Of a stretch of 62,000 nucleotides of DNA, positions 2,246 to 57,250 are shown piece by piece. This DNA comes from Lama guanicoe (lineage: Eukaryota): the NCBI GenBank assembly GCA_013239625.1, contig MU053156.1, forward strand, positions 124,467 through 186,466, given 5' to 3'. The notes under the pieces were generated by a model. The model saw only the letters and a program-made list of their open reading frames with translations. It did not search any database and had not been told where the DNA came from. How positions within the stretch are numbered: position 1 is the stretch's first letter; each line of letters begins with the position of its first letter. The position numbers and the translations under genes are program-made.

Positions 2246-2249
2246 TTCC

Positions 2250-2975: not shown

Positions 2976-2984
2976 TATATTTTT

Positions 2985-3290: not shown

Positions 3291-3384
3291 ACATCTTTTT
3301 TTTCAATGGCACATACAGACTATATTGCATGTAATACATATATACAGTATACTGCATGTGGGCATGAGATTTAATTTGTCTTAG

Positions 3385-3606
3385 CTGTGGACATGCTGGG
3401 TTATAGGGTTGATGTATATTTAGTTTCACAGGAAACTCCCAGACCTTATTCCTAAAGTGGTTCTACCAGATTTCATCCCCACCAACAATGGATGAGAGTT
3501 CCTGTTGCTGCACATCCTTTCCAACACTTGTTGTCAGCCTTGTCAGTGTTAGCTCTCCTAGGATGTGTAGTGGTATCTTACTGTGGTTTTAATTTGTGCT
3601 TCCCTG
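3385..3606 (-). mobile_element. L1M 3' region, continuation of the element interrupted at ~2975
   Basis: ctaaagtggttctacca...ccaccaacaatggatgagagttcctgttgctgcacatcctttccaacacttg...gtggtatcttactgtggttttaatttg is typical antisense L1 ORF2 3'/3'UTR wording. Confidence 0.8.
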
Positions 3607-3781
3607 GAGGAAAGTGAGCAATAGGATGGTTTCTCAGAGAGATGATGGTGGAAATCAAGCCTGGTTGTGATCATTGTTACAGCTTTGCTCTTTTTCTTTC
3701 TTTTTTTTTCTTTTTTTAGTCTCCATCAAATCCTTTCTCATATTTCCTTTTGGTTTCCCTTATTTATATTTTTCCTGTTTA

Positions 3782-3903
3782 TTTTTTTTAACTTTTTTTA
3801 TTGAGTTATAATCATTTTACAATGTTGTGTCAAATTCCAATGTAGAGCACAATTTTTCAGTTATACATGAACATATATATACATATTCATTGTCACATTT
3901 TTT
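3782..3903 (-). mobile_element. Young LINE-1 3' terminus (camelid-type) with poly(A) tail, running into an assembly gap
   Basis: Poly-T followed by ttattgagttataatcattttacaatgttgtgtcaaattccaatgtagagcacaatttttcagttatacatgaaca. Lineage assignment is from recall. Confidence 0.8.
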
Positions 3904-4509
3904 NNNNNNNNNNNNNNNNNNNNNNNNNNNNNNNNNNNNNNNNNNNNNNNNNNNNNNNNNNNNNNNNNNNNNNNNNNNNNNNNNNNNNNNNNNNNNNNNN
4001 NNNNNNNNNNNNNNNNNNNNNNNNNNNNNNNNNNNNNNNNNNNNNNNNNNNNNNNNNNNNNNNNNNNNNNNNNNNNNNNNNNNNNNNNNNNNNNNNNNNN
4101 NNNNNNNNNNNNNNNNNNNNNNNNNNNNNNNNNNNNNNNNNNNNNNNNNNNNNNNNNNNNNNNNNNNNNNNNNNNNNNNNNNNNNNNNNNNNNNNNNNNN
4201 NNNNNNNNNNNNNNNNNNNNNNNNNNNNNNNNNNNNNNNNNNNNNNNNNNNNNNNNNNNNNNNNNNNNNNNNNNNNNNNNNNNNNNNNNNNNNNNNNNNN
4301 NNNNNNNNNNNNNNNNNNNNNNNNNNNNNNNNNNNNNNNNNNNNNNNNNNNNNNNNNNNNNNNNNNNNNNNNNNNNNNNNNNNNNNNNNNNNNNNNNNNN
4401 NNNNNNNNNNNNNNNNNNNNNNNNNNNNNNNNNNNNNNNNNNNNNNNNNNNNNNNNNNNNNNNNNNNNNNNNNNNNNNNNNNNNNNNNNNNNNNNNNNNN
4501 NNNNNNNNN
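3904..4509. other. Assembly gap (606 N)
   Basis: Run of N. Confidence 1.
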
Positions 4510-5205
4510 CGCCCGCGAACCATCTCGGGGCCGCACCGCTGCCGCCGCCGCATTCGGCACGAAGCTCCGCGGCAGCCGCTCGGTCAGCGCCGCGCTTCCC
4601 GGAGGGACTTCGCTGCCGCCGCTGCAGCCGCTTCAGCTGCCTGGAGGGAGAAGAGCCGGCGCCGCTCGGGAGAACCGCAGACACATCTGCCCCTCGGAAA
4701 GGCTTCCGCGTGACTGCCTGGCAATCTGACCTTCGGGTGGGCGGAGGGAGGGCGCCGGGGCGTGGCCTGGAAGCGTGTGCGCGGATTGGCTGTCGTGTCT
4801 CTGGGGGCGGGTCTGCTGGCCCCTTAGATTTGTAGTCTTTTTGCCTACCAGGACTTTTTTTTTTGAAGGGGGTTAGTGATTTGTTTTATTTTTACATTGA
4901 TCAGCTATCAAATTGTTTTACTTTGGTAGTATAGCCCCAAACTGGAGTACAATTGGAGCCGCCCGCGAACCATCTCGGGGCCGCACCGCTGCCGCCGCCG
5001 CGTTCGGCACGAAGCTCCGCGGCAGCCGCTTGGCCCACGCCGCGCCTCCCAGAGGGACAGCGCCGCTGCCGCTGCAGCCGCTGCAGCCGCCGCCGCCGCC
5101 GCCGCTCGGGAGAGCCCCAGAGCCGAGCCGCCGGCTGCTCGGATCGGCTGCCGCCTGCCTGCCTGCCTGCCTGCCTGCCTGCCCACCCGCCTACCTGAGG
5201 TACTG
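4510..5205. promoter_or_regulatory. CpG island / promoter-like block with a ~160-bp unit repeated at 450-bp period
   Basis: Very CpG-dense. GC boxes at 4739-4744, 4757-4766 and 4804-4811; ATTGG (CCAAT) at 4785-4789; ETS-like CTTCCG at 4703-4708; ZNF143-like GACTACAAATC on minus at 4827-4837. 4510-~4672 is repeated at 4960-~5113. (GCC)n ~5087-5105 and (GCCT)n ~5153-5183. Confidence 0.7.
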
Positions 5206-5239
5206 ACCGAACGGGTCCATCTACGGGTGTAGGGGCCGG

Positions 5240-5573
5240 GCCTGGGAGGATAAGGGAAGATTACCAGCTATGGGGGGAACTGACATCAGGTTGACTCATT
5301 GGTTACCAGGGAAGCCAGCAGAAGAACACGTAAGCCCCTCACTGTTCCTTTGACAACTTGTGATAAGCTATCAGAGAGGAGAGCAGTTCTGATCTGAAGA
5401 TTGGAACAATCACTAGCTGGGGCCAGGGAAATTATGTAGGCAGTACAGATTATGTTCTCTGATTAAGAGGGAAGCCTGGCCATGGGGGTAGGATGTAGGT
5501 GAAGGTGGGACTGGTCCGGCAAGGGATGTACAGAGAGCAAGAAAATAGCCATCTTGGGTGGCCTGACCATACA
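5240..5573 (-). mobile_element. ERV LTR, 5' (U3) portion; 3' part missing or replaced by the CpG block
   Basis: Minus strand begins TGTATGGTCAGGCCACCCAAGATGGC at 5573 (TG start, YY1-like CAAGATGGC). CCAAT at 5298-5302 and TGACTCA at 5292-5298. No poly(A) signal or CA end found; left boundary uncertain. Confidence 0.65.
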
Positions 5574-5969
5574 GATGGTAAACAGAATTTTGACTGTATG
5601 GGAGCTGAATGTATATACCCAAATAATAAAATATTATCTCAGTTTATGGCCATCTAATCTGTTATTCTACCCTTATTTTTTAACTAGAAATGAACTAAAT
5701 TGGAAAGATTAGGCTTATATTGATATGTCTAAGGGACAGTCTCTGAGGACAGCAGAAAAATAAAAGCAGGCAGAGTATTTTTAATTAATATTAAGGGCTA
5801 TAAAATATTGGATTAATAGATTAGCATGTCTCATGTCTTTCTCATCACATTGTCAGAACAATATACATAGTGTTAAATGTAGTTTTAATATGTAGTTTAG
5901 ATACTGTCAGCATTGAAGCGGCTCCTGCAGTGTTTACCATAGCAGATTTACATTGGTAACTTTTAACAG

Positions 5970-6092
5970 TCTATGAAGTGCTGGCACATGCCTGGTGGTT
6001 TTAAATTTATTTTCTCATGATAATCCTGTAAAGTAGATAAAACTGAGGGTCCACTCAACTGAGGTAAAGGGCAGAGCCTGGACTTAAATCCT
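5970..6092 (-). mobile_element. MIR SINE fragment
   Basis: ctcatgataatcctgtaaagtagataaaactgagg...gtaaagggcagagcctggacttaaatcc resembles the MIR core. Confidence 0.5.
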
Positions 6093-6275
6093 CCCCCATC
6101 TCTGGCACTTACTTCTTTTGATAAGCTCTCAGACACTATGTATCATTAACAAACATGCACCTGTATGTTCGAACTTCCTTCCTCAGCGGCTGGATCATGT
6201 CTATAGCGACTGCATTTGGAGCTCAAAACCTGCGGCTCTGGTAAAACAATCAGAGAGCCAGTAGTTTCTAACTCT

Positions 6276-6570
6276 TATTAAAAGATAAACTGAAGTGTGT
6301 TACAATTTTTTTAAGTTTATCTGAGCAAAAGTTGATTAGAATAGGGCGTCGCCAAACCAGAAGTGCTTAGGAGAGCTCCCCGGGCAGGAGCTCACAGAGA
6401 AAGAGGGGAAGCAAAGTAATGAAGTTGTGGGCTGCCTGCAGCTTACAGCCTAGCTGGCCACTTGTGATGCGTCGTCCTAGGTTTCAGTTTTCTAACCTGC
6501 AGGTATTCACAGGCTTTGAGCTTTGTTTGCTTACACAGACATCATGGCCTGAGACCCCGCCTCAGTCTCC
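6276..6570 (-). mobile_element. ERV1-type LTR (degraded)
   Basis: tattaaaagataaactgaag...aagtttatctgagcaaaagttgattagaatagggcgtcgccaaaccagaagtg...gcctcagtct resembles MER51-like laurasiatherian LTRs (from recall). Termini eroded. Confidence 0.6.
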
Positions 6571-7039
6571 TGGCCTTCTTGCCCTCCAAATGCCTCATGC
6601 CTCTTAATCTGGAGCCGCCCTTTCTCACCGCTTCCTACCTCCATGATGGGCTATTGCCCTTTCCAAGAGCTTTCAGAGTAGATGCTCTGAGTTCACCTCT
6701 GTCATGGTACTTGTCACCTGACTCTAAGTGTTTATTCCCACTAGAATTAGCATGGTTTCCCGCACTCCCCAGGCACTTAGGGATGTTGGCTGGGCACAGA
6801 AATGACTGACTACATCGATGTGGGTTGTTCTACCTCCTCTTAATCAGTTTTCTCTTTTCTGGCTGATGTTTTTCATCCTGGTTTTGCCTGTTGGTCATTA
6901 TCACAGTGGTTTTTAACCTTCTTTCTAAATCACAATCAAGTATGTGGCTTCTGGACTTACAGGGAATGCCTAGATATGAGTGAGTAGGTAAGATGTAGTA
7001 CCAACCCATTTCGACAATGTGATGGCAACGTTGTATTTT

Positions 7040-7075
7040 AGAGGATCAATAAATACTTGCTGAATGAATGAACAA
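7040..7075 (+). mobile_element. LINE-2 3' end
   Basis: caataaatacttgctgaatgaatgaa is the canonical L2 tail. Confidence 0.65.
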
Positions 7076-8024
7076 AGGGAGAAAATATTAAATGTTCTCA
7101 GTGATGAGGGTAATTGGGCAGGGCAGAATCCTAAGTAAATCCTGTTTCCCAACACTAGCAGAAAGCAGAAGGTAGCTACTACCAAAGGCTGCATAATTCT
7201 GAGAAGGCCTGTTTGCAGATCTGAGTAAATGAGGACTCTTAAGTAAATCTTAGTCCTCTGAAAGCTAACATTAAGTTTGGGGAAATTTTTTTAAATTAAA
7301 ATTTTACGTACAAAAAATTTAAACTTACACATATTAAAATTTCATATTTATTGTATGTTATGTATTACATATTCTATATTATGCAACATGTTACATATCA
7401 TATATAATGTAATACTATGATACCATCAAAATGATGCTTATAAATCAATGTTTATCTACATGTAAAGAAAATTGCAATATATTCAGTGAATTAGTAAGGT
7501 CTACTCAAAAATGCCTCTGTGTTTGTTTTTTAAAAAGTAAATATATATTCATATATGTATAAGACACTCTCTGGAAAGATCTATAACAAAATGTTAATGG
7601 TAGATGCCTCTAGGCAATGATATTAAAGGCGATTTTTACTATGTTCTTTATATCTTTTTGTTATCTGAATATTTAAAAAGGAAATTATAATCTATCTGAA
7701 ATTTGGAAAACAAAATAATATATTCATTCCGAATAATTTGTGATATGTTTTCAATGTTACCTGGTGCTAAAACCCAGTGACACTGAATGGTATCTGGGGC
7801 TTAGACAGGAAACAAGCATGGAAGGAGGGAAACCGAAACTGAAAATGGGTTGACTAAAAACAAATCTTTCCAGAAATACTTCAAAGTTGCAATTAGATTT
7901 CCAAAGAAGGCTTTCTTACCTCCTTGAAGATTTCTCTTTATCAACATTGCCTGCAGGGTGTGGGGTCTTTGAGGTGATGGCAGCAGCGAAAAAACGCTGG
8001 ATTCCAGTGATACAATAGAGGAAA

Positions 8025-8569
8025 TGTTACCAAGTCCAAACCCATTCTGCTCACCGCGTGACAGGCTAATAAACTGGGAGATGAGGTGTTGGGGCAAAGA
8101 ATAGTGACTTTATTCAGAAAGCCAGCAGACCGAGAGGATGGCAAACTAACAATGTCTTGGAGAGCCATCCTGCTCCAGTCAGAATAGAGTCTCCTTTTAT
8201 ACAAAACAAAACAAAACAAAACAAAAAACAGGGGAGGCTGTGTGGCTGGTTGTTGCAAACTTCTTGGTGTAGGAATTCTTTGTTCCTGCAGCTGTCCGTG
8301 AGAGCAGGTCATGGCTCTCCTGCAAAACCTCCAACAAAACAAAGGCTACTGTCTATTCTGCAACTTGTTATCTTTATGTAAGTGCAGAAGAGTTAATATC
8401 CTTAAAGGTCAGAGCCTTGAGAAAGGGCTCTTCTGTTTACCAGATAGGCTAAAGGCAACATTCATTTAAAAAAGGTGCAGAGCTAGCAAGAATAAATCCA
8501 GAAAAAGAGCACAATGGCTAAAACTAAAGGAACAGATCCAAGATAGAGTCATATCTGTTCTCTATTACA
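8025..8569 (-). mobile_element. Intact solo ERV1 LTR (545 bp) with 4-bp TSD GAAA
   Basis: Minus strand TGTAATAGAG...TTGGTAACA (TG...CA). GAAA at 8021-8024 and 8570-8573. Minus-strand AATAAA at ~8109-8114. Internal (CAAAA)n at ~8201-8229. Confidence 0.9.
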
Positions 8570-10232
8570 GAAAGGAAGGTGGAAGGATAATCAGTCTAGA
8601 ATGGTACCCACTGACTTCTGTCAAGGAAAGCATCACATAGTTGACTTTTTTTTTTTAAGTTTTAGAGCAAAGTGGAATCAATTCTTTTGAAATTTGCTCA
8701 CACCAGCTACTTGGAATTTCTTTAATGCCTTTCAGCAGATTGAACACATGTGAAACTAAATCAAAAATCTACTTTAATATAGTTCATCCCTAGTTAAATC
8801 CGATGTTTTACAGAGTATGGTGATTATGAACTGCTAAAATTCACTAACTACATTTTAAAATATATTTAACAATGTCATATTTTTTAAGTAAATTCAATTT
8901 GAAATTGATAGCCTTAGCTCTAGTGCTTTTTTGGTGGAGGAAAATTACCTGGGGGTGGAGGGATAGCCCAGGGGAGAGCTGTAGTTTTTATGGTATTATT
9001 GTTGACAAATATAAAAGAACTATAATGACTGAGAAGACATAGAATTAAGAAATTATATAGAGCCTGAAGTTTTACTCTATATCATTATTAATTCTGTAAT
9101 ATAATTATATTACTAAATTGTATAAAAATAACCAATCAATTTAATAATAAAATGAAAGTGATGTCAAGGTGAATGAATAATAAATAATATGATTTATAAT
9201 TTTTAAATGGTTTTCTTAATAATACATAACCAAGGAGAACATCAGCATCCAGTGGATGAGCTGAGTTGGCTGAAAATCACGGTGACATCCGATTTAATGA
9301 TTTATTGCTTGTCCTCTTTGATTGTGTATGAGGCCATTTCCTCATAAATCTCAGGACCCCAGTTTGGGAAGTTGCCCCCAGATGAACCTTAAGCTTATAG
9401 ATGTTTACAAAACATATTCTTTCCCTGATTTGAGATCTCAAATGGAAAAAGACTATAAACACACAACTGAATCATTTTCCGCTTCTCTATAACATACAGT
9501 ATCATTATTAAATTAATGACTAATGACAATTAACAGCTGTCTACTTTCTAACATTTGCATACATATTTTAATAATCATGTTATTCAGAAAATTTCTTAAA
9601 CAGATTCAAACATCTACTTACAATTTGGTATTTTCCTCATCAAATTTCATCTGCTTCCCATCTTCCTCTTTTTTCAGATTCCATCTGGAAGTTTGGATAA
9701 CCACTCCTTCTGAACTTTGAGTTAGTCAAAATTATTCTGTCTCCATCTCTGATTTTTAACACAATATCTCACATTGTAAATACTATTTACAACTCTTTAA
9801 GGGAAAATTATTTAGTTGCTTTTCTAAAATCCTGATTATTTATGTGAAAATGTTAGGTTACTATAAACTGTAACTGAATGTTAGTGTTAGTTATTGTCAT
9901 TCTTTTCTTTTTTTCAAGGAAAAATAATGTTTGAAACCAACAGATAGAAGTAATATAGATGATTGGAAGTGACATAGATCATTGTACCATTCATGTATCT
10001 TGATAGGACTCACATTTAATGGGAAATAAATGATTAACATAAAAACTCCAGCAAGACAGCAAGTGAAAATGGTTTGAAACCTGACTACAATTTTCATGGT
10101 GTGAATAAAGCAGTAGCCAAAGAGGAAGGGCTTTCCTGGTAAATGAAAAGGTTTTCTGATACATAGTGTCTATGTGCAATAATTTTGGGATGAGGTGAAC
10201 CTGAATTATTTTTCAAAACTCTATTTTTCATT

Positions 10233-10383
10233 AAAACCGACAACATAATGCCATTTGCAGCAACATGGATGCTCCTAGAGAATGTCATTCTAAGTGAAGT
10301 AAGCCAGAAAGTGAAAGAAAAATACCATATGAGATCGCTCATATGTGGAATCTAAAAAACAAAAACAAAAACAAACAAACAAA
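10233..10383 (+). mobile_element. Young LINE-1 3' region (camelid-type), running into a gap
   Basis: aacataatgccatttgcagcaacatggatgctcctagagaatgtcattctaagtgaagtaagccagaaag...gagatcgctcatatgtggaatctaaaaaac, the ORF2 end MPFAATWM followed by 3'UTR. Confidence 0.9.
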
Positions 10384-10458
10384 NNNNNNNNNNNNNNNNN
10401 NNNNNNNNNNNNNNNNNNNNNNNNNNNNNNNNNNNNNNNNNNNNNNNNNNNNNNNNNN
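10384..10458. other. Assembly gap (75 N)
   Basis: Run of N. Confidence 1.
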
Positions 10459-14499: not shown

Positions 14500-15356
14500 G
14501 GTGGTCTGAGTACGGTGGGCGTGGGCTCTGACAGGTCTCCAGGGCTGTGGGCCGGGTGGGCTGTGTCCTTGTGTGGCTGGGGTCCTATCGCCGAGTCTCC
14601 CTGGGGTCCATGGCTCCTGCCTAATCAGCCCCTTGGCCTTGACATCAACCCCTCTCACTCAAGTGGGTTTTGAGGCCTGGACTCAGCCCAGGGCCAGTGA
14701 AGCAGCAGCTGTCCAGTGACCTGCGTTGGAAACCTGGGCCTCTGTGCACCTCGGTTCAGATCTGTAGGTTCAGCCTCCTCAGGGGAGTGAGGATGGAGGG
14801 CAGGACACATCAACAGAGGTAGAACTTCCGAGAGGAAGGAGGTGACACCACGCGGGGCTGGGGGCCCAGAGCCCGTCCCAGGCCCGAGGGGCAGAGGGAA
14901 ACCCCGGGAGATAGTTAGGATCAGGAACGGGAAACTGGGGGCCATATTGTAAGCCGCCTAGTCTAGTTTTCTGATTTTCCTTAGAGAGAGATCTATACAC
15001 CTTCAACTCTCCTGAACTTAAAATAAAAAGTTGCATAGATTGCTTCTTATCAACACAGTAAATACTGAACCATCATGAGAGTCTTAGTCATGGCTGTGGC
15101 GGCGAGGCCGGCAGGGGTGAGAGGGTGGGAGGTGACGGAGGGTCCCGTGGAGGGTGAGGGAGGGAGGTCTTGGCATGTGCTGGCTGTAGCGTCCAGGTCC
15201 TGTCTTACTGTCCTCTACCCTGGGCCATTGTCCTCAGCTGCCCTGGCGCCTGAGCCCATGTGTCCGTGCCGTGGTGGGAGGAAGCGGCGGGGAAGGTGGT
15301 CTGAGTACGGTGGGCGTGGGCTGTGACAGGTCTCCAGGGCTGTGGGCCGGGTGGGC
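14500..15356 (+). repeat. 62-bp direct repeat pair (14500-14561 and 15295-15356)
   Basis: ggtggtctgagtacggtgggcgtgggct(c/g)tgacaggtctccagggctgtgggccgggtgggc, one mismatch. Confidence 0.9.
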
Positions 15357-18320: not shown

Positions 18321-20954
18321 GAACCACCACTGGGGGCCAGGCTGACTCGGCAAGGCCCAGGGAGGGCGGAGGGGAGCGTGGCGGCTGGGCGGTGCGGCGG
18401 GAGCGGCTCATCAGCTGCGGCCTCACGTCCCTTCATCGCGGGGCCTGCAGAAGATGTTCTCTGATTAGTCTGCTGAATTATGAATTAGGTTCCAGGTCCC
18501 TGTGCAGCTGTTCCCGGCTTGTCATCCCCACCACTTTATTTCCCCATCTGCTTATAAAACCAGGAGCGCCGTCCTGCAATAAACACTTCAAACGCTTTTT
18601 TTAGGGGCTAATTAATTGTGTTGCATTTCTCTGACACAGCATGCAGGCTGGACCTGCCCCGAATTCCCAATGCAGGTGTGGCTCCCCTGAGGGCCTGCAG
18701 AGAGGCTGGGGTGTCTGCCAGGGCCCAGAGCTGGGGCTACATGTGGCCTCCCCGAGCACGTGTCTCCAGAGGCAGCCCCCACCCCTGTCCTGGCGGGGTC
18801 CCCCCAGCCCCCACCAGAGCCACTGGACCTCTCCTTTCCCCAACTCACCAGGACCCATCCAAGGTCAAGTTCATGCTCCCCCCACCCCCACTCCACTGGC
18901 AGCACCAATCTTCTTGCCCCCAACACCTCCCCAGCATCCAGCCTTCACCAAACCTTGCCCAGCACCTCCTTGTACCTCCTGCCTTTGCACTGCTGCTCCT
19001 TTCCCAGAGCACTGGGGGTCCCCATCCACCTGGAACATCTCCTGTCCCTGAGGTCCCATGTCCCCCTCAGTGGGTTCCTGTCAGGGATGGCACCTGTAGT
19101 GGAGCCGATCTCTCGCTTCCAAGGAAGCTTTTGGGAGCCCTGCCGCTGCTCTGCACCCTAAGGCCCAGCAGAAAACGTGGTGGAGGAGGTTTAAAACAAT
19201 GACATTAATAAGAAAACAAAAATACAATTATCTAGTTACAAAACAGAGCTCTGAGAGAATTAAGTTACGGGAGCCATTTGAATGTTTCCAATGCCAGGCA
19301 AGTGGCCTTTTATTAAGTTGATGTTTAAAGTGAGCTCTACATCAAAGAAGTAAGTTTTAGGTGTTAAACCTACAGCCAGCTGTCAGGGTCCCTATCCAAC
19401 CCCCCTGGGGCCGAGGAGGCATCTGTCACATGCAGCTGATGGGGCCCAGGGTCCTCTGTCCCTGAGGCCAGTGGGGCTCCCATGGGCTGTCATGCCTGTC
19501 GGAACCGGCTGGGCCTCTTTGGTTCCTTGGCTTCCGAGGATGGGGTTGGGTGGAGTCTCGACCTATCTCCCCACACCCTCCAGCTCTGGCTGGCCCCTGG
19601 TGTGCAGGGAGAGGGTCCTGCTGTGTAGACCACGGCCCCATCCTTGAGCACAAGCATGTGGGGAATGGCTGAGCCCTCTGACTGCTTGGCTGTTGGGCCT
19701 CCAGGCCCAGGGGTTGTTGGGGGCCCCTCCCTGACATCAGAAGCCTCGTCCTCCATCTGGGCCCTGACACTGGATGCACCGTGGGGAGCCATGGGGCAGG
19801 CTTTGCTCCATCTCCAGCTGCCCATGGCCGAGGACGCCCTGATGGGCAGAGGTGCCCTGCAGCCCCAGTGGAGGAGGCTGAGGTCTTGGGAGGCTGGAGA
19901 GCTTGTTTGGTGGAATTTGTTTTGGGCAGGGATGGGGTCAGGGAGGAGGTGACTCAGGATGCTGGGGAGGGGGCTGCGGGCTGCTGGGAACCCCCAGGGA
20001 GACCTGTGGAGCATCCCCGACAGGGATGCAGCGGCGGGCGCTGGGGGGACAGACAGGGAGCAGGTAGGTCCTCGCACTGTGTGCACGGAGAACCGAGCAG
20101 GTCCCTGGGCCTTCCAGGTTGGCAGATGGGCCGCCGAGACCGGGAACCTGGGCTCCTGTGACCCCACAGCCAGCCGCAAGCCCGCAGGACCCCACGCAGA
20201 GGAGACGGAGACATGCTTCCCAGCTTGGCCGGGCTCTGCCTAGAACACTTTTATGGGCTGTTAATTGTGGTGCTTCCACTTAATTCTGGGTGTCACTCCA
20301 TGTCAGCCAAGCCCGACAGCCTGGGATTTATGCCTCCAAATTATGGGGCTCAGCTGTTCCGAGGTAAAACAATCACCCATCAATCAGCCGCCAACGGGCT
20401 CGCTCTCGGGCTGGCAGCCCCGTTGGCCGTGCGGGTGGCGGTGGCCGAGGTGATGCTCCAGGGCAGGGCTGGAGGGGCCAGGGCTCAGCCTCCATGGAGG
20501 TGAGGTGCCGGGGCTGTGAGGCGGCCTCAGACTCAGTGGGAGGAGGCCCGCATGTCCTGGTGCTGCAGGCCTGGCTGGCTGCAGTCATCGGTCACCCCGC
20601 TTCCTCAGGCACTCCCCGGAGGAAGGGTGGTGCTGTCCCACCTACGCCTACGAGGCCGCTCTCTGCAGAACAGCCGGGGACCAGCAGCCCCACCTGCAAC
20701 TGCAGGTGCATGGGCCACTCGAGCTGGGCTGCTGAGCCGTGAGCTCGTCCACTGAACACGACGGCCCTGAAATAGAGTCTGTGCCTCGTTTCCCTCCTGT
20801 GAGCAGTGGCTCCAGAGTGCAGAGGAGACTGGGGGACCCTGTGGAGGGTGGGCTATGCAGATGGGCTGGGCCAGGGCGTGGAGGGCTGTTGCTGGGGAAG
20901 TGGGATGGGCAGTGTCCTGGAGGCTTGGAGGTGAGAAGGGCCTGCAAGGTGTTG

Positions 20955-21718
20955 GGGTGAGGTGAGAGGTGAGGTGAAGGGTAAGCTGTGTGGTGAGGTG
21001 AGGTGAGGTGAAGTGAGGTTGTGAGGTGAGGGGTGAGATGAGATGTGGGTGAGGTCAGGGGTGAGATGAGATGTGGGTGAGGTGAGGTGAGAGGTGAGGT
21101 GTGAGGTGTGAGGTAAGGTTGTGAGGTGAGGGGTGAGGTGAAGGGTGAGCTGTGTGGTGAGGTGAGGTGTGAGGGGTGAGGTACGAGGTGTGAGGTGAGG
21201 TGTGAGGTGTGAGGTGAGGTGTGAGGTGAAGTATGAGGTGAGATGAGAGGTGAGGTGTGAGGTGTGAGGTGAGGTGTGAGGTGAAGTATGAGGTGAGATG
21301 AGAGGTGAGGTGTGAGGTGTGAGTTGAGGTGTGAAGGAAGGGGTGAGGTTTGAGATGAGGTGTGATGTGAGGGGTGAGGTGAGATGTGAGGTGTGAGGTG
21401 AAGTGTGAAGTGAGGGGTGAGGTATGAGGTGTGAGGTGAGGTGTGAGGTGAAGTATGAGGTGAGATGAGAGGTGAGGTGTGAGGTGTGAGGTGAGGTGTG
21501 AGGTGAGGGGTGAGGTGTGATGTGAGGTGTGAGGTGAAGTGTGAGGTGTGATGTGAGGTGTGAGGTGAAGTATGAAGTGAGATGAGAGGTGAGGTGTGAG
21601 GTGAGGTGTGAGGTGTGGTGAGGTGTGAGGTGTGAGGTGAGATGAGAGGTGAGGTGTGAGGTGAGGTGTGAGGTGAAGTATGAGGTGAGGTTGTGAGGTG
21701 AGGGATGAGGTGAGGTAA
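20955..21718 (+). repeat. (GTGAG/GTGTGAG/GATGAG)n simple-repeat array with a higher-order unit
   Basis: Seen directly. The block gtgaagtatgaggtgagatgagaggtgaggtgtgag recurs at ~21226, 21281, 21448 and 21565, and partially at 21674. The + strand is almost C-free. Confidence 0.97.
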
Positions 21719-22700: not shown

Positions 22701-23462
22701 TTCACTATGGGGATGACTTAATGATAAGTGCGAGGCCTCATCTGCTGTCACCGTCACACGGTCCACGCTGTCTCTGCTCCCTGAGAGGCCAGTGCGCAGC
22801 GGCCACGGCCACCACATGTCTCCACCTCTCACCCCTCTGGGTGACAAAGTCTCCACTCCCCGGGTCATGTCTCTACCCCAGAGCCGGGCCTGTCCCTCCC
22901 AGCCCTCCCTCAGGCCACGGGGGATCGTCCGAACGCGCCCTGGTCACTCTCCCTCAGTCTTCCCGCTGTTCCACGGGCTGAGGACACCTGCCTTGCTGGT
23001 GCTGGTCAGGCCTGCCTGGCCACCGTGGGGCCACTGACTTCCGGTGCTGTTCCTGGTGCCCTGAGGATGCACACGGTGCCTTCACTATGGGGATGACTTA
23101 ATGATAAGTGCGAGGCCTCATCTGCTGTCACCGTCACACGGTCCACGCTGTCTCTGCTCCCTGAGAGGCCAGTGCGCAGCTGCCACGGCCACCATGTCTC
23201 CACCTCTCACCCCTCTGGGTGACAAAGTCTCCGCTCCCCGGGTCGTGTCTCTACCCCAGAGCCGGGTGTGTCCCTCCCAGCCCTCCCTCAGGCCACGGGG
23301 GATCGTCCGAACGCGCCCTGGTCACTCTCCCTCAGTCTTCCCGCTGTTCCACGGGCTGAGGACACCTGCCTTGCTGGTGCTGGTCAGGCCTGCCTGGCCA
23401 CCGTGGGGCCACTGACTTCCGGTGCTGTTCCTGGTGCCCTGAGGATGCACACGGTGCCTTCA
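22701..23462 (+). repeat. Tandem duplication: 380-bp unit (22701-23080) and 378-bp unit (23081-23458)
   Basis: Both copies begin ttcactatggggatgacttaatgataag. About 5 substitutions and one 2-bp indel. TTCA microhomology at 22701, 23081 and 23459. Confidence 0.97.
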
Positions 23463-26375
23463 GGTTCTAGGGCAGCGTCCACCCACCCCACCACCCAAAG
23501 AGGCCCAGGCTCTGCCTGACGTGGGACTCGATGGTCCCCTAGGACAGTGACTGGCTCAGAGCTGAGCTGGGCACAGCCCAGGGTCCACAGCAGAGGCCTG
23601 ACCCTCTGTCCAGGGCCTCTGGAAGCCCCGGCCCCAGGAGGGCTCAGGGGTGGCCAGGGGAACAGGTGGCCATTCTGAAGTCCCTGGCAGGGGATCCTGC
23701 CTGGGGCACAGTGGGGACAGATGGCTCCTGGCAGGACAGGGGCTCCCACCTTGAGGGGCCAGCTGCCCTGAGCCGGCATGAAGCAAGGCTTCGGGCAAAC
23801 CCAGAGGGACGGGGTGTGGTGGTGGCCAGGATACCGGGCTCTTTTGGGGCCTGCATTTGGGGCTTTAGGTGCACAGTGGGGCTGGGGCCCAGGAGCACAG
23901 GGGCTCAGAGAAAGTCCAGGAACACACAAGTGTGTTTCCTCCTCGGGGGCAGCTCACAGATCTGCAGCCTTGCGAATACCACCACTGGGAAGAGAAAGTT
24001 TTGGTGTCCCTGGGCATCTCCCGCCACATGGGACCACCACAGACACAGCCCCGCTGGGGCCTTGCCAGCCTGGCTGTGCCTTTGGAGCCTTCATCATGCA
24101 GTCTCCCTGGCAGGGCTGGAGGCCCAGGCACACGTCCTCGTGGGAGATGCACTCACAGGCCTGAGTGTGCAGGGGTCGGGCCAGGGTTCCAATCACGCCT
24201 CTTCCACTTGCTGGGCCGGGTGTCTTTGTCGGGGGCTGTGAGCATTCCACGAGCCAGCCCGGCCCGTGAGAGTGCGGTAAGGGGGCCCTTAGGGGCCTTC
24301 TAGGGCGGCGAGGAGGGAGCCCGCTCCCCGGCCAGGCCATCCCTTACCTCCCTGGCGGGCAGGAGGGACATGGCAAGGCTGAAGAGCCTCAGTTTGTCCT
24401 CTTATCTCGGTCACCAGCCAGGCTGTCCCGGGTGCCTGTCCATGGGCCACTGTCACGGGCTCGTCTGAGGGGCCAGTTAACTGCCTGCTGGAACACACAG
24501 TCCTGGGCCCTTGTCACCTGGGGGCTGTCAGGGCAGAGTCCAGCTGTGAGTCTGTGAGCTGATGACCTCCCCACTGATCTGAATCTTGTCCTCCTCCCTG
24601 TGATGGGCCCCCCACATCCCCCCAGGCCCCCTGCATCCTCCCTTGGCCCTCTGCATTCCCCCAGCCCCCAGGCCCACACTGATGCGGATGCAGCCTCCTC
24701 TCCCTGCTGGCATCATGGAATGGCGACAGGAGGCTTTGGGGAGCTGGTGTTCCTGGTGAGCCGGGTCCTCCCTGGGCTGTGGAGCCATTGTGGTCATGCT
24801 GTGGCCCCTGGGACTCACTGCACCCTGGCATCCCGAGGCCAAGGGGGGCGTCCCAGGCCCTCACAAGCTGAAAGACCCTATGGGGAACCCCAAGGTCTGG
24901 GCTAGACTCGAGGGGGCGCGAGTCCCTGTAGGGTGCTTGGGGACATCCCAGAGGCCCAGTTGGCCTTGGCCAGCCACTCAGCTGCATTCTGGTTCCAACT
25001 CCCAATGTTACTAATCCCAGGAACACCTTGAAAACCACATAAAACATGGTGACAGACCAATTGTTTGAGAGCACACGGCAGCCGGGGCCAATTAGCCAAG
25101 ATTCCCAGGCAGTGGGGCTCCCATGGGCTCAGGGCTTGGGGGGAGGGTTGGCCCTGGTGCTCCTCCACCCACCATGCCCCTGGCCATTGGCTCCAAGGAA
25201 AGAGCCCGCCACCCAGGAAGTTGCTCCTTGCAGGAATGGGCTGTATCTCCTCGTAGAGAGATGACAGTCAAGGTGCTGATAAGACCTGTAGGACGCATAG
25301 ACAAGGGCTGGGGCTGCGCGGGGCCCCCTCTCCCACTCAGGCCAAGGAGGCTGAGCTAAGTGAGGCTGTAGCTCCTGGCCTGGGTCAGGGGAGCTGTGGG
25401 CAGTCTGGTGTATCCTGTGCTTTGCTGGACACGAGAGGAAGAGTGTCGGATGCCATCCGGGTGGAATTCATGTCACTGTTGGAGTGAACTGGATTCATGA
25501 ATATACTTACCAACCAGGATGGATGTGGTCTATCTGGGAAGACTGCCTATCCATTTGCCCTCCCCAGAGACCCCTCTAGACCAGGCCAGAGCCAGGGGAG
25601 AAAGGTTCCCCCAGGAAACTGGGCTGAACAAGGTTAAGGGGTTCCCTCCAGGACTTCTCAGTGCCTTGAGTCTGTGTTTGGATGCTGCCAGGCTGGGGCT
25701 GCTGTCTTCTTTCTCTGCCCTGGGCCTTATGCAAGGGCCTGGGATGAGGCTGGGGCTGCCCAGGGCCTGAGGGCCTGGGCCAGGTGGTAGGAGATGGGAG
25801 TCCCAGTCCCTAGAGGCCTCCTCTGAACTGGGGCCAAGATTCCCACATTTCATGTCCCCACCCGTCGGTGCTGCACTGAATGAAGGAAGAGCTTCCCGAC
25901 CCCTGGGCGGGGGTCACCCGTGTGCCTGGAACCCACCCTCCCAGTTCTGTGTGGGGCTCCACCAGCTGTAGGCCTCGCAGCTCCAGCCTCTCTGGGTTTT
26001 ACGACACGTTTTGTTTTCATTCTGTTTGTACGGACGCCTATTTGCTGCCTGCAATGCTTGTTTTCCATTTCCCATGGCGCTGTAAGGTTTCCTTTCAAAA
26101 TATAGTCATTTAAGTAAAAAAAAATCCATCTGAAGAAAGCCCGCCAGTAAACAATAAAGAAGCAGGCGGGTGGACGCGGGACGGACGGAGTGTGGGCTTG
26201 GCGGTGGGCAGGTGCAAGGCTGCAGGTGGGGGGACCGTGAGTGGGGAGTGGAGGCCCCCTTCTGCTGCTGCCTGGCCCCCTGGGCCCCTGGGCCGCCGTC
26301 CTGAGGCCGAGGCTGCCCTTGGCTGCCTGCTTGTGGACGTGGCTTTATGGTCATGCTTGTCCAGCCCTGGATGCC

Positions 26376-28857
26376 CCGGGCCTCAGGCTCACTTTATTCT
26401 TGACTTGGGTCCAACCGTGCTTTTATTTGCCTTCTGGCGTATTTGTTCATCGAGAAGTGCCCAGGAATGGAGCGTCGGAGGGGTGGGCTGCCCCCAGGGC
26501 CATCTCAGTCAGGGCCTTCTGCCTGCAGTCTCGCACGGGCAGTGGCCAGGGCCCGCCGTCCTGGTCTCGGCTGTCTCCCCACACAGCCACTCCTCGCAGA
26601 GGTGAGACCGAGGCCCAGGCTGCTGCCCCTTGTCCGAGGCTGTGTGAGCCCCAGGAATGAGGGGTGAGGCACACTCAGCTCCATCTGTACATCTGTGCCC
26701 TCTATGCCGATGGGCTCTGTTCACCCACATGCTTGGAGGTCCCCGCGCAGCACAAGGGGCAGGAGTAAGGGTCCTTTCTGGGGTGGGGGCTGCTGCTCTC
26801 AGGCTGCAAGAAGGAGGTGCTAGAGGGGGCAATGGGGCAGCAGCCTGGGCAGGGAGACCCTGGGCGGGTCACATGGCCCTCAGGGTCCTCTGCGCCTCTG
26901 CCGTGCAGTCAGGCCCCGGCTTGTTGTCCAGGCTCACGGGTGGCGATGAGCCACTCCCAGGGGCCAGGGAAGCCCTGCAGACAATATTGATGCCGTTTTT
27001 TCCTGAAACAACCAAATGCCAGATATGAATGCCAGCTCTGCTGGAAACTCGGAGATTGATGTCAGGAACCGGGAGCACAGACCTGAGCCCGGGCTTCCCG
27101 ATTGGGGGAGGGTGGGCTCTCTGCAGGGGGCAATGTGGCAGGCGGTTAACCTGGCGAGTGGCAGGTGGCCGTGCCCTGGCGCCACCCCTCCTCCGTGAAG
27201 ACAGTCCCGGTCAGGCTTAGGGGTGGGGGCCGACCCTTCGGCACCCAGAAGTTGACTCAGCTTCCCGAGAGGCAGCAGTGCGGCCAGCTCCAGGGCCTTC
27301 CGTGCACACAACTGGCATGACAGGGAATGCACTTTCCTGCCAGGCCCCCGAGGCTGGGAACTGCCTGCAGGAGGGGCCTGCACTTGCTTGGTGCTCCGGG
27401 CCCAAGTCCCGCCTGCAGGTTCCAGGCCTCCCTGGGACCCTGCAGCCCTCAGTCTCCACCCCAGGGCCCCGCCCCTCCCTCCGCTGGGGACCTGGTGCCT
27501 CTGACAGAAGGTGAGTGGGGCAGACCCAGGCCGGTGGTCAGTCCACTTCCTGGTGCCTGGTACCCGTCCGAGAACCGGGGAGGTGCCCGCGGTCTGGGGG
27601 AGCAAGGGCAGTGGTGCCCTCTGTCCCCCTCCCAGTTCCTGCCTCCCCCGTGCAGGGTCGAGGGGCAGGAGTGCGCCAGCTTATTGGGGGTGGGAAAGCG
27701 GGGTTCTGAGAGGTGGTGTTCTGCAGGGGTCCCCAGAGTGTGAGTCTGTGGGCTGGGTGGTGTAGACTGAGTGTCAGTGTCCCCCAAATGCTTTATTGAC
27801 ACCCTTATCCCCGGGGACTATATTAGGAGGTGAAGCCTTTGGGAGGTGATAAGGCTATGAATGTGCAGTCCTCCCGAATGGGGTGAGTGCCGCGGATCAA
27901 AGAGCCTGACACTCCCTCCCCTCCTGCCTGCCAGGCCCCTGGGAGGGGGTGCCACTGCGGACCAGGAGGCGCTCACCAGATACCCCATCTGCCTATGCCT
28001 TCACCTCAGGCTCCCAGCCCCAGAACTTCGAGAAATACACCCTGTGGTTGAAAAGCCACCCCATCCCTGGAATTTTGTTACAGTAGCTCAGAACAGACTG
28101 AGGTTGTGACTCCTCCAAGCCCATTTCCTTGTCTGTAAAACTGGGAGAGGGGGGATGTGGGAGGCATCTCCTACAGACACATAGCAAAACTGGGGGCACT
28201 GTGGCCCACCTGCCCAGTCCCCGCCCGCCCTGGCGAGGTGAGGTGCTGCTGCCCCCTCATTCTTTCTAAAGACTCCATCTTGTCCAGGCCCCTCTCTCAA
28301 GACCTCCTGGCCCAACCTGGGCACCTGGCCCTCCTAGGGGGCTGCCTTCTGGGGCCCTGAAGGCTGATGCTGCCCCACCTGCACAAGGCATCCTCTGCCC
28401 ATGGTGGCCCCTTGGGTCCCAGCACACCCTGGAATGGGGTCCCACCTCCCAGGCCACCCTGGCTGTGCTTCCAGCCCCAGTCAAGGAGGTGTCAGAATTC
28501 CAGATGTTTTGGAAGACTCCCCTGAGCACAGCTGTATTTAATCTGGAAGGCTGAGCTGCTTGAGGCACGAGCAACAGTGTGTTAGTAATAATAATGGGCC
28601 AGCAGGTAGTGGAGCCAGAGATTTGCCCCCTAGGACTACAGAGGAGTAGGGGTTTGGCACAGACCAGAAGGAGTGGGGGTGGGGTGGGGACCGGGCCTCA
28701 GGCTCACTTTATTCTTGACTTGGGTTCAACTGTGCTTTTATTTGCCTTCTGGCGTATTTGCTCATCGAGAAGTGCCCAGGAATGGAGCATCGGAGGGGTG
28801 GGCCGCCACCAGGGCCATCTCAGTCAGGGCCTTCTGCCTGCAGTCTCGCACGGGCAG
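26376..28857 (+). repeat. Segment A, 167 bp: 26376-26542 repeated at 28691-28857
   Basis: ccgggcctcaggctcactttattcttgac...gtctcgcacgggcag; 6 substitutions by manual comparison. Confidence 0.95.
27758..28102 (+). mobile_element. MLT1 (ERVL-MaLR) solo LTR
   Basis: tggtgtagactgagtgtcagtgtcccccaaa...tattaggaggtgaagcctttgggaggtgataagg...cagccccagaacttcgagaaataca...aattttgttacagtagctcagaacagactga follows the MLT1A/B layout. Confidence 0.85.
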
Positions 28858-29052
28858 AATTCCAGCTGTTTTGGAAGAATCCCCTGAGCATAGCTGTATT
28901 TAATCCGGAAGGCTGAGCTGCTTGAGGCACGAGCAACAGTGTGTTAGTAATAATAATGGGCCAGCAGGTAGTGGAGCCAGAGATTTGCCCCCTAGGACTA
29001 CAGAGGAGTAGGGGTTTGGCACAGACCAGAAGGAGTGGGGGTGGGGTGGGGA
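28493..29052 (+). repeat. Segment B, 198 bp: 28493-28690 and 28855-29052, flanking the second copy of A
   Basis: cagaattccag...gtgggggtggggtgggga; 4 substitutions. Confidence 0.95.
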
Positions 29053-31994
29053 GGCAGGGCCTCGGGGTGTGGCTGAGATTAACCCAGCTACACAGCTGAC
29101 TGTCTGCCAGGCTCTCGCCTCCTCTTCAACTTTCATCCTACATTAAAGATTGATCCAGGATCAGGGGAGGGCAAAGAGTACCAGAGACGGGCCTCCTCCT
29201 CCAGGAAGCCTCCCAGAAGTGTCTCCAGACCTTGGCCTCCATCTCCCAGGGGCCAGGGAAGCCCTGCAGACAATATTGATGCCGTTTTCTCCTGAAACAA
29301 CCAAATGCCAGATATGAATGCCAGCTCTGCTGGAAACTAGGAGATTGATGTCAGGAACCGGGAGCACAGACCTGAGCCCGGGCTTCCCGATTGGGGGAGG
29401 GTGGGCTCTCTGCAGGGGGTAATGTGGCAGGCGGTTAACCTGGCGAGTGGCAGGTGGCCGTGCCCTGGCGCCACCCCTCCTCCGTGAAGACAGTCCCGGT
29501 CAGGCTTAGGGGTGGGGGCCGACCCTTCGGCACCCAGAAGTTGACTCAGCTTCCCGAGAGGCAGCAGTGCGGCCAGCTCCAGGGCCTTCCGTGCACACAA
29601 CTGGCATGACAGGGAATGCACTTTCCTGCCAGGCCCCCGAGGCTGGGAACTGCCTGCAGGAGGGGCCTGCACTTGCTTGGTGCTCCGGGCCCAAGTCCCG
29701 CCTGCAGGTTCCAGGCCTCCCTGGGACCCTGAGCAGGCATGTGGCCAGGCCCTGCCTAATCTTGGGAAGGAGAGCAGGGAGCCCACGGGGCAGGGTGGAT
29801 GTGAACACAGACCCTCCCGGGGGTGGGCTTGTGGGGGGGCCCGGGGCCAGAGCACTGCTGAGAAGACCACCCAGAGGGAACAGGTCCGTCTGTCCCATCT
29901 CTCAGCCGTGGTGCCAGTGGCCTCCCTGGCCGGGCCTGGGTGGGGTCTTCTCTTGCTAACTCTTCGTGGGCAGGGATTGCCCACCCCTCAGCTCTGTTTG
30001 CTCACTTGATGCCTCCCAACTACTCCCTGAGGGGTGCCTCTCTGCGGGCTGAGAGGGTCCTGGGCCTCGTGATACCTCTCCGTGGTGAGTCCCGGCCCCC
30101 TTGCCTTCCCTGTGCTTGTCAGTGGGCAGATCTTGTGCCTGTTTCCAAGCCGTCTGTGAGGCAGGGCCTGGGGTCTCCTGAAATGAATTTCTTAGCGCCT
30201 TGTGGGCTGGAACCGCCTGTCCTCCCGTCCCACTGGCCGGGCTTCTGGGCCCATTGTGCGGGCTCCTCCTGTTCTTCACCTGAGCCCCTCCTGTCTGTCA
30301 CCAGAGCCCCAGGCAGTGGCATTTCAGGGCAGCAGCAGTTCTTGGGCCGTGCTGTGTGGAGCTGGCTCTCCCCAGCTTGGACTGCGGTGAGACCCATTGG
30401 TAGTTTTGGAATCCGCCACAGTGGGAGTGTTCATACCCCAGAAATCAGCAGATACTCCAAACTGAAGCCCCCTGGCCCATCCCAGATGGTGAAGCATTGG
30501 GCAAACCCCACCCTGACCGGGCCCTGGTACCAGGCCACCCACGGAGAACCCCCACGGGTCAAGCCAGCCCTCTACCAAGGTCCAGGAGACTCCTCGGGTG
30601 GATGCTCTGGCCAGGCCCAGAGCCAACACAGGTGCCCTGTGTGGATGAGAAGGTCCAGGGGCATCTGGGGTTGCTCACACGATCCCCCAATCCCCTGGAG
30701 GCTTTTGTTATTGGATTCTGGGAGAGGGGCTTCAGTGGGGAATACTGATCCTGGATTGCCTGGGTTCCTCAGGGGCTCATGGAAATAGGAAAACAGCCCC
30801 GAGGGGAACAGGACTCGGATGGCCGAGGCAGAGTGACCTGCACCACCTGGTCACTGGGTGCCCCTGGGTCGGGACAGGGCAGGCACGGCGGGGAGGCCTG
30901 CGAGGTAGGGGCCACTTGCTGGCTGCTTGGCTTCCATTCATCAGACTGCTGTTCCCCACCCAGCCTTTGAAGCTGCAATAAATATTGATTTGGGCAAATC
31001 GATGTGTTTCTGAGGAACTGGCTGGATAGCAAAGTTACAAGGCTCAGGCCAAAGTCACCCACTCACTGAGTGTCCTCCCCAAGCCCGAGGGAGACGACCG
31101 GAGAGTGCTGGGCCCACTGAGGGGTTGGAGGGGAAGGGGAGAGCTTGGCAGACAATGGCCCTGGTCCTCACCATGGCTGAGGGCCTGTCCCCACACCCCC
31201 CAGGGCCTCTTGTGCCACTGCACCCACGCATCACCTGTGGGTACCTGAGCAGGTCTGTGCTTGGGGGACGTGCAGTCAGGCCCCGGCTTGTTGTCCAGGC
31301 TCACGGGTGGCGATGAGCCACTCCCAGGGGCCAGGGAAGCCCTGCAGACAATATTGATGCCGTTTTTTCCTGAAACAACCAAATGCCAGATATGAATGCC
31401 AGCTCTGCTGGAAACTCGGAGATTGATGTCAGGAACCGGGAGCACAGACCTGAGCCCGGGCTTCCCGACTGCACCCCTGCTCCCCTTCCCCTAGCAGCAT
31501 ACCCCCCAAGATGAGGAATTCACTACTGCATGAACTGCCTCTTCCATCTCTGCCCCAGCAGCACTTCACCTGGACCCAGGGCCACAGAGGTGGCGCCCCT
31601 CCTGATCGCACACTCCAGGAGGCAGCGTCTGCCTGCTCAGGGTCGCTCTGGCTGTGTTCCCCCAGCTCCTGCTGCTGCCTAGAGCGGTTTAGGCCACCAG
31701 CTCTTGGGTCCCTCACTGAATCAATCGGAATCCCCGACTGGCCCCTGGGGCTCCTGGGGACCCTGCCACCCTCAGTGCTTCTGCACAAACCACTCCCTTC
31801 TCTGCCCCTGGTTCAACAGCTCCCCCATCTTTCCTCTGCCTGGAACTGGGGCCTGGCTCCTCAGAGGATACCCTCGGAGTCTCTCCAGAGCCTGCCTGTC
31901 TAGGGGATGTTCCTTATCTACCCCCACCTCCTGGGTGTTTCCCTCCAGCCCTCTCTGCCTCCCCACGTCTCCTAGATCTCTGAGGCCAGGTCAG

Positions 31995-32375
31995 TGCGCT
32001 CCGGCCTGCGGCTTTATTTATGAGAATCTGGGAGGTGCAGATGTGATGTTTCCAGCTAATAGCCCCCAATCACCCCGCTGCCCATTAGCAGGGAAGCCAG
32101 CCTGCGTACATTATGCAGCACACCACCTAAGTGGGAGCCAAGGCAGCGGTTTTACGACCCCATAAAACTTTGGGAGTTTATTGCTATTGAACAAACATGT
32201 AATCCGATGCTTCAAGTTCAATATATGGAGCCAACGGCGTCCAGAGCTGGCGGGGGCTGCGGCGCCCACGGCCAGGAGGCTGCCACCAGGCTGAGCCACT
32301 GAGACATCCAGGGGCTTTGGAGTTCATTGGTGATTGATTGGCTGCAGGAAGGGGGCAAGATTTACGGTGGCTGTG
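31995..32375. promoter_or_regulatory. HOX/CDX/PBX motif cluster, candidate enhancer
   Basis: TTTATTTATGA (~32013), TTTTACGAC immediately followed by CCCATAAAA (32150-32167), TGATTGATTGG (~32331), GATTTACGG (~32359). Confidence 0.45.
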
Positions 32376-57095: not shown

Positions 57096-57250
57096 GCTGC
57101 CAGCAGTGGCTCCAGTGGGCCCCGCCGGCCCCGTTGTGCGATTGGTTGAGGAAAGGAAGGAATGCTGCCAGCAGTGGCTGCTGGCTGTGTATCCCGTTGC
57201 CAGTGGGCCCCGCCGGCCCCGTTGTGCGATTGGTTGAGGAAAGGAAGGAA
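57096..57250 (+). repeat. Compound short duplication: 51-bp identical unit (57112-57162, 57200-57250) and 16-bp unit (57096-57111, 57164-57179)
   Basis: ccagtgggccccgccggccccgttgtgcgattggttgaggaaaggaaggaa twice; gctgccagcagtggct twice. Confidence 0.93.

Follow-up and report, generated by a model that had tools for sequence, protein, structure and literature searches.

We found that three pieces (A, C and D) of a single kilobase of Lama guanicoe DNA recur downstream within the window, the whole 62-kb stretch that was analysed, and that A is no plain insertion but one half of a two-junction DUP-NML-DUP rearrangement. At a probability of about 60%, we read the locus as a cluster of neutral germline duplications, locally templated and formed in at least two episodes, in GC-rich non-coding camelid DNA. 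Genome scars of this kind are already known, and only the clustering sets this locus apart; the copies are most likely by-products of chromosome-break repair in non-coding DNA, with no sign of function.

Map of the copied segments and the B-A-B' arrangement

Self-BLAST and direct comparison across the 62-kb window located three downstream copies in the assembly, all in direct orientation, with E-values (at most 4e-74) that exclude chance. The coordinates, lengths, orientation and difference counts (6, 3 and 0) given by an earlier sequence-only reading were reproduced. The features, in window coordinates, are as follows.

26376..26542, + strand: source of A, 167 bp (self-BLAST and direct comparison)
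26543..28492, no strand: copy-neutral interval of the A/B DUP-NML-DUP, 1,950 bp, including the D and C sources
26902..27101, + strand: source of D, 200 bp, with a 148-bp overlap with C
26954..27442, + strand: upstream copy of C, 489 bp, probably the source
28493..28690, + strand: B, first copy, 198 bp
28691..28857, + strand: copy of A, 167 bp, 6 differences from its source
28855..29052, + strand: B', second copy of B, 4 differences from B, retaining the original right-hand context
29037..29067, + strand: G-quadruplex consensus motif spanning the end of B', which is the native context of the B-to-A breakpoint
29053..29242, no strand: spacer Y between B' and the C copy, 190 bp, unique
29243..29731, + strand: downstream copy of C, 489 bp, 3 differences
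29732..31268, no strand: spacer Z between the C and D copies, 1,537 bp, unique
31269..31468, + strand: copy of D, 200 bp, 0 differences

All three sources lie within 1,067 bp, those of C and D starting 52 bp apart, and the core at 26954-27101 (148 bp) is present in three copies within the window, as the earlier reading had it. Start-to-start offsets are 2315 for A, 2289 for C and 4367 for D, and the copies are separated by 385 bp (A to C) and 1,537 bp (C to D). A second copy of 26543-26901 was sought within the window and none was found. Three other near-identical local duplications occur elsewhere in the window, so local duplication is common in this stretch. The window also holds many long ORFs, as expected at 62% GC, and Atlas and PDB searches for the identity of a gene at the window end returned no match.

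An assembly artefact, above all for D, would account for a copy without differences in a gapped assembly. However, the window gaps are confined to 3904-4509 and 10384-10458, with no N in the copy region; each copy has two unique junctions, and the junction 31-mers each occur once; junction overlap is 0-3 bp, and overlaps of 0 and 3 bp are probably too small for a misjoin by a k-mer assembler; A, B and C carry age-like differences; and identical donor-acceptor pairs have been validated by PCR in humans (PMC2671141). We therefore consider an artefact very improbable.

The copy of A sits exactly between B and B', that is, between two copies of its own landing site. Both A and B are duplicated and arranged B-A-B', and the interval between their original positions is copy-neutral save for the separate C and D copies, which is the order of a DUP-NML-DUP rearrangement. 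The sequence-only reading was right about the class, locally templated copying through template switching or the repair of breaks, but took A as free-standing and overlooked B-A-B'. Because the downstream A is the one flanked by duplicated B, its copy direction is fixed. The divergences of A and B are compatible (p=0.52). The B-to-A junction is blunt and the A-to-B' junction has a 3-bp microhomology, CAG, with both native contexts known; an overlap of that length has a chance level of about 7% among local joins drawn at random.

In the reading we favour, the older episode would be a single event of replication or repair in which the template was switched twice: synthesis would leave the end of B, jump back by 2.3 kb to where A begins, copy 167 bp and rejoin the start of B at the 3-bp microhomology, producing B-A-B' as a miniature direct DUP-NML-DUP. 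The identical product could arise stepwise, by a 2,315-bp tandem duplication from the start of A to the end of B followed by a 1,950-bp deletion in the second copy at CAG, a route that agrees with one junction being blunt (the duplication) and the other having 3 bp of overlap (the deletion); C and D, too, could be what a duplication and a later deletion left behind. This route takes two events where one suffices, C and D would require deletions ending at or near the duplication junction, and no intermediates were found for comparable human variants in PMC4617611. We regard it as quite improbable.

Divergence, register and the number of episodes

Of the 6 differences in the A copy, 5 are transitions and 3 lie at CpG, with losses spread over both copies; for A and B together, CpG transitions make up 4 of 10 differences and are lost on both copies, as in natural ageing. 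The sequence-only reading described a three-step gradient of divergence and age. Only two classes are separable: A and B, with 10 differences in 365 bp, are more diverged than C and D, with 3 in 689 bp (p=0.002; p=0.001-0.002 after CpG weighting), and also more diverged than C alone (p=0.01-0.02), whereas C and D do not differ (p=0.56).

All 3 differences in C fall inside its first 178 bp, where 4.9 would be expected at the A/B rate, and the final 311 bp are identical, so C may be old and partly converted. However, when three differences were scattered uniformly in simulations, an identical run of at least 311 bp appeared in 19% of them, and conversion is thus unnecessary for the identical tail. 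For D, identity at the A/B rate has p=0.004, and D therefore needs either its own conversion or a later origin.

That the donor kilobase was the template is shown for A and probable for D; for C, either of the two copies could be the original. D was likely templated by the upstream locus and not by the C copy, judging from its match to the upstream sequence at 27000 and 27050, where the C copy differs, and from 52 bp of D that are absent from the C copy. For C, a CpG density of 3.9 per 100 bp is slightly nearer that of the upstream flanks (3.1 and 3.9) than that of the downstream flanks (1.6 and 3.0), suggesting that upstream C is probably the source.

The offsets of A and C lie just 26 bp apart (p=0.0035-0.005 by Monte Carlo, allowing a match in any of the direct pairs that three copies form, post hoc), and the two segments are collinear, with a gap of 411 bp upstream versus 385 bp downstream and spans of 1,067 versus 1,041 bp. 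Since A and C were copied almost in register, the independence of the events is doubtful, and the earlier proposal of repeated independent events fits poorly; ectopic gene conversion, moreover, can reset divergence. Near-register copying also speaks against the multi-episode view that we favour, as unrelated episodes do not predict it (p about 0.004, post hoc). The 411 bp of donor sequence between A and C and the 385 bp between their downstream copies, spacer Y included, were compared for remnant homology; none was found, and hence no sign of a single decayed 1-kb duplication.

One complex event could have made B-A-B' and C, and perhaps D, by a polymerase toggling between templates about 2 kb apart, with later gene conversion clearing divergence from C. 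The kept donor order and spacing of A and C agree with this, as do the first 178 bp of C, diverged at about the A/B rate ahead of an identical end. Overlapping insertions from 1-2 kb hotspots are documented within one event (10.1101/835058; PMC13065848), multi-duplication inserts occur in healthy genomes (PMC4617611), and conversion increases with template length and proximity (10.64898/2026.08.26.747289). Yet the identical run in C needs no conversion, D would still require its own conversion or a later origin, and the inserts lack the end-to-end chaining seen in the cited events. We judge a single event unlikely, though it is the strongest competitor.

A special case of the multi-episode reading is feed-forward copying, in which the old duplication would steer the next into the same register. 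A resected break near 29242 would pair with upstream A through the 167-bp homology, placing its free end beside about 26930, where it would prime on a few bases and copy C. Both the 26-bp offset difference and the lower divergence of C relative to A and B would then be covered without conversion. Against it, this is one case seen post hoc, the D offset of 4367 does not fit, the homology at the C junction is not above chance, and pairing would have to be internal, with an unpaired 3' tail of about 385 nt. A homology of 167 bp is short for mammalian ectopic pairing. We found no paper stating the idea in the literature accessible to us, which is short of most subscription journals. We hold feed-forward copying to be unlikely too, slightly more so than a single event.

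Under the multi-episode reading, one or two younger episodes would have followed, in which a break at 29242 took up 489 bp, and one at 31268 took up 200 bp, of sequence copied from a template near 26.9-27.4 kb by ectopic synthesis-dependent strand annealing before the ends were rejoined, as in repair-mediated duplication. Re-use of one kilobase would follow from breaks lying close together and template choice within a few kilobases, and probably also from a dependence of one event on another; nothing intrinsic to the donor would be required.

Junction overlaps and the donor kilobase

The sequence-only reading invoked microhomology as a hallmark of the copying. Overlaps are present, with 3 bp at one join and 1 and 2 bp at D, but they are thin, and the B-to-A join has 0 bp. 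The GAC noted at both ends of D is real, the D junctions sliding 2 bases left and 1 right, although joins placed locally at random slide by at least 3 bases in total about 7% of the time. No homology exceeding chance was found at the C junction, nor was microhomeology above chance found past the copy ends at any of the 6 junctions. Polymerase theta was not adopted as the specific enzyme, the junction microhomology being slight; the inserts that it templates are as a rule adjacent and far shorter.

The segments could alternatively derive from a dispersed repeat, or from a local transcript whose cDNA was taken up at breaks. As had been noted from the letters alone, no copy end carries a poly(A/T) run, a terminal inverted repeat or a short target-site duplication; terminal repeats and shared ends, which with these would mark a transposable element or retrocopy, are likewise absent. 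Rfam gave 0 matches, a search for older diverged copies across the 62-kb window found none, and no metagenome or viral contig matched a 27-base pattern from the core. None of the copies is spliced, and the sole known match of each lies within 4.4 kb. A repeat or cDNA origin is the least probable of the explanations weighed here.

We found no special property of the donor that would make it the local copy hotspot proposed earlier, with CpG, folding and G-quadruplex tests negative or borderline. Donor GC (0.64) and CpG observed/expected (0.38) are inside the local range (CpG o/e median 0.28, 90th percentile 0.43), and folding of 26880-27460 is unremarkable (z = -1.24). Of six tests of G-quadruplex proximity at the 12 breakpoints, one gave p=0.04 and the others p=0.06-0.38, and enrichment at breakpoints was dropped. 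Within the motif at 29037..29067, seven bases (GGGCCTC) match the start of A and lie 2-4 nt away from the join (p about 0.04).

Three independent events of three ages at an intrinsically copy-prone donor would nonetheless suit the tight grouping of the sources: independent draws would put three same-orientation donors within 1,067 bp with a probability of about 0.002-0.003, the C and D sources start close together, and three captures in 2.8 kb far exceed published densities of 0.2-0.65 per Mb. However, if the density were ten times the published one, chance would yield about 0.7 such triplets per genome, the ages of C and D are inseparable, and the donor measures are as described above. We consider a copy-prone donor improbable.

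Comparison with known duplications and implications

The closest published class is repair-mediated duplication. Pace et al. (2009; PMC2671141) described 824 proximal human duplications (mean 162 bp, maximum 619 bp) with donors within 5 kb, found also in cow and dog; 0 of 39 inspected had a poly(A/T) tail, and breakpoints were marked by microhomology of 2-9 nt, deletion of 1-15 nt, filler, or target duplication of 4-21 nt. Our segments of 167, 489 and 200 bp fall within that range of 50 to about 620 bp, their donors lie within 5 kb on the same chromosome in non-tandem positions, they have no poly(A/T), and identical young pairs like D occur there; short microhomology may be a further likeness, the slide of 2 and 1 bases at D being close to what chance gives. 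Unlike those duplications, this locus has three copies in 2.8 kb from one kilobase, a three-copy core, and a 198-bp target duplication at A. Because 198 bp is outside the published range, A is kept out of the class. C and D fit its mode but fall outside the strict set of that study, which admitted one other copy of an insert, while the 148-bp core occurs three times within the window. The authors saw no clustering, but their pipeline set aside any insert that had two or more further copies and accepted only cases whose two flanks resumed within 30 bp; this locus would probably have been lost, and the absence of clustering there is thus not a fair test.

The junction order of B-A-B' is that of the direct DUP-NML-DUP by two template switches described at the PLP1 locus (PMC6902434), although the alleles there are array-scale and disease-associated, whereas here duplications of 167 and 198 bp flank a 1.95-kb neutral interval in old, non-coding sequence. 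Among 1000 Genomes complex deletions and inverted duplications with local templates, PMC4617611 lists classes such as 'Ins with Dup and Del' and 'Ins with MultiDup and Del', with a template within 10 kb at 871 of 1,651 complex sites and at least two duplications at 191. As here, stretches under 1 kb are inserted within 5 kb of their template; those events, however, are polymorphic and were found via deletions or inversions, whereas all copies here are direct. Tandem Short Template jumps and mitotic MM-BIR hotspots (10.1101/835058; PMC13065848) yield partly overlapping inserts, about 150-250 bp long, that come from hotspots of 1-2 kb and often show little microhomology; the 148-bp overlap of C and D and the 1,067-bp spread of the sources resemble this. 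Those chains, in contrast, are somatic, single-event, end-to-end and often from distant loci, whereas native DNA (385 and 1,537 bp) lies between the inserts here and two divergence classes are present. As context, PMC11707537 and PMC7615360 report insertions raised at meiotic and telomere-proximal breaks.

The locus itself matters little, as non-coding repair scars of such size and range number hundreds per mammalian genome. The geometry is the part worth keeping, prior catalogues having excluded multi-copy and long-target-duplication cases; since such cases were filtered out, clustering and template re-use have not been fairly tested by the closest paper (PMC2671141). Offset concordance of neighbouring duplications of different age would separate single events, gene conversion and feed-forward copying. 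There is a small chance that the locus is a germline fossil of feed-forward duplication, in which a first local duplication of about 170 bp pairs two sites in register and the next break captures DNA at the same offset. If so, short local duplications would give rise to further ones that can be predicted, and mosaic loci would grow out of such small parts, on a small scale a route towards duplication hubs; matching offsets would be predicted among neighbouring local duplications of different age.

Copied segments and their surroundings

Self-comparison of the window reproduced every coordinate and difference count that the sequence-only reading had given for A, C and D, segments of an upstream stretch of about 1 kb (26376-27442) that each have a second copy downstream, and the core 26954-27101 is present in three copies. 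A further segment, B, repeated on both sides of the A copy, had been overlooked.

Local duplications of at least 96% identity in the window (7 of 7 direct, 0 inverted)
26376-26542 and 28691-28857; direct; segment A, 6 differences in 167 bp
26954-27442 and 29243-29731; direct; segment C, 3 differences in 489 bp
26902-27101 and 31269-31468; direct; segment D, 0 differences in 200 bp
28493-28690 and 28855-29052; direct; segment B and its second copy B', 4 differences in 198 bp
14500-14561 and 15295-15356; direct; 62-bp copy, 1 difference, 795 bp apart, a local duplication of the same kind
22701-23462; direct; 378-bp tandem duplication, 98% identical
57112-57297; direct; 57-bp near-tandem duplication, short spacer, period 88

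As previously claimed, no tails or terminal repeats were found at the A, C and D copies; Rfam gave zero matches, contig scans yielded no relative, and the region (60-66% GC) has no assembly gap close by. An assembly artefact is unlikely, with only a very small probability, because the junctions are unique and overlap by 0-3 bp. Between donor and acceptor, outside every copied segment, lies a candidate old LTR (~27750-28100), which we take to resemble the MLT1 type. On either side of the cluster, two AT-richer islands (~25990-26170 and ~32060-32220), neither inside a copied segment, each carry TTTTACGA, presumably a posterior HOX/CDX site; these islands may be conserved enhancers.

The last 200 bases contain the following frame, whose peptide we take to be the RTN4R C-terminus, an identity that found no confirmation in Atlas and PDB searches.

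61802-61999; minus strand; open frame, RTN4R C-terminus candidate

An AATAAA near 61530-61535 on the same strand is a likely polyadenylation signal, with a likely 3' UTR of this frame, and if the identity is right the cluster would be situated past the 3' end of RTN4R, at a distance of about 30 kb. GC rises from 33-48% at 1-10400 to 55-66% at 12000-62000 across a 75-N gap (10384-10458), which may mark the edge of an isochore, an evolutionary breakpoint or a point where scaffolds were joined. Two CpG-rich copies, 80% identical (4510-4720 and 4960-5165), start directly after a 606-N gap and are possibly a retroelement 5' end. A degenerate G/T-rich minisatellite of 770 bp, strongly skewed between the strands, occupies 20947-21716.

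Junction order and divergence classes

The A copy occupies the interval between B and B', and this order yields two junctions and fixes the direction in which A was copied. The join from B end to A start is blunt, and that from A end to B start overlaps by 3 bp (CAG). The same junction order characterizes the direct DUP-NML-DUP (two duplications with a copy-neutral interval between them, here 26543-28492) in the available text of PMC6902434, of which B-A-B' is a very small-scale counterpart. In its native context, the B end lies in a G-quadruplex consensus (29037-29067), which includes a 7-bp match to the A start, 2-4 nt off the join (p about 0.04); across all 12 breakpoints, six tests of closeness to such motifs (p 0.04-0.38) give no convincing association.

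Divergence of A is compatible with that of B (p=0.52), and C with D (p=0.56), whereas A and B together (10/365 differences, 2.7%, 95% interval 1.3-5.0) differ from C and D together (3/689, p=0.002), with a weaker contrast against C alone (p=0.02, Fisher; about 0.01, CpG-weighted). These data support two divergence classes, not the three ages originally proposed. At 2.2e-9 substitutions per year, the rate assumed in the available part of PMC2671141, which may not be the camelid rate, A and B would be ~6 million years old (3-11) and C and D younger than about 4 million years. CpG transitions make up 4 of the 10 A/B differences and are lost on both copies, which looks like natural ageing.

The main alternative, a single complex event after which C underwent gene conversion, has a low though appreciable probability. 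All three C differences are confined to the opening 178 bp of the segment, single events do yield overlapping inserts drawn from 1-2 kb hotspots (10.1101/835058 and PMC13065848, as far as their available text goes), and conversion is described as strongest for long, close copies (available text of 10.64898/2026.08.26.747289); however, 19% of uniform simulations show an identical run of at least this length, and D would also have to be rescued in this way. At both sites that distinguish the C copy from the upstream one, D agrees with the latter; D also holds 52 bp missing from the C copy, and was therefore templated upstream. It would be no less parsimonious for C to have been copied from 29243 to 26954 and for D then to have been taken across the junction so formed; CpG density gives only a slight preference to an upstream source for C.

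Possible linkage and mechanism of the events

Measured from start to start, the offset is 2315 for A, 2289 for C and 4367 for D. A and C lie 411 bp apart in the upstream stretch and 385 bp apart downstream, with no homology found between these two middles. In simulations that fixed the sites and chose donors independently, 0.35-0.5% contained two direct copies whose offsets agreed to within 26 bp, and in 0.2-0.3% all three donors shared one orientation and fell inside 1,067 bp; each of these tests is post hoc and concerns a single window out of very many. Repair-duplication densities of 0.20 per Mb in cow and 0.62 in human (available part of PMC2671141) predict fewer than 0.001 such triplets per genome, or about 0.7 at ten times the highest density. 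The window also holds one more non-tandem and two tandem or near-tandem copies, so the local duplication rate is plainly above published values. Linked events are suggested by the cluster, not proven: of the repeated independent events first proposed, two divergence classes stand and independence is doubtful, given A and C offsets within 26 bp. The reading as a hotspot donor with three ages is supported only in part. The donor's GC (0.64) and CpG o/e (0.38) lie inside the local spread, its folding is unremarkable (z -1.24), and no preferred-template feature was found among these three.

We favour, at a probability of roughly 0.6 (the readings are not strictly exclusive), an older two-switch duplication that would have produced B-A-B', after which one or two younger captures would have produced the C and D copies. 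C and D appear to behave like the repair-mediated duplications for which the available text of PMC2671141 gives ectopic synthesis-dependent strand annealing as the mechanism. That set comprises 824 human cases averaging 162 bp and reaching at most 619 bp, with the donor no more than 5 kb away and tails absent in 39/39 inspected inserts, and such duplications also occur in cow and dog; C and D fail its single-other-copy filter. The GAC reported at both ends of the D copy is present, at a 7% chance level that does not establish microhomology. Local templating of the same scale appears in human population data (PMC4617611, available text). The locus is real in the assembly, more complex than first noted and of a known kind, best read as a DUP-NML-DUP in miniature together with two captures of the repair type.

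Nested within this two-stage reading is feed-forward copying, in which the older duplication would pair its two sites and steer the next capture into the same register. It accounts for both the A/C register and the age gap, but this is a single case and the D offset does not fit, and we consider it improbable.
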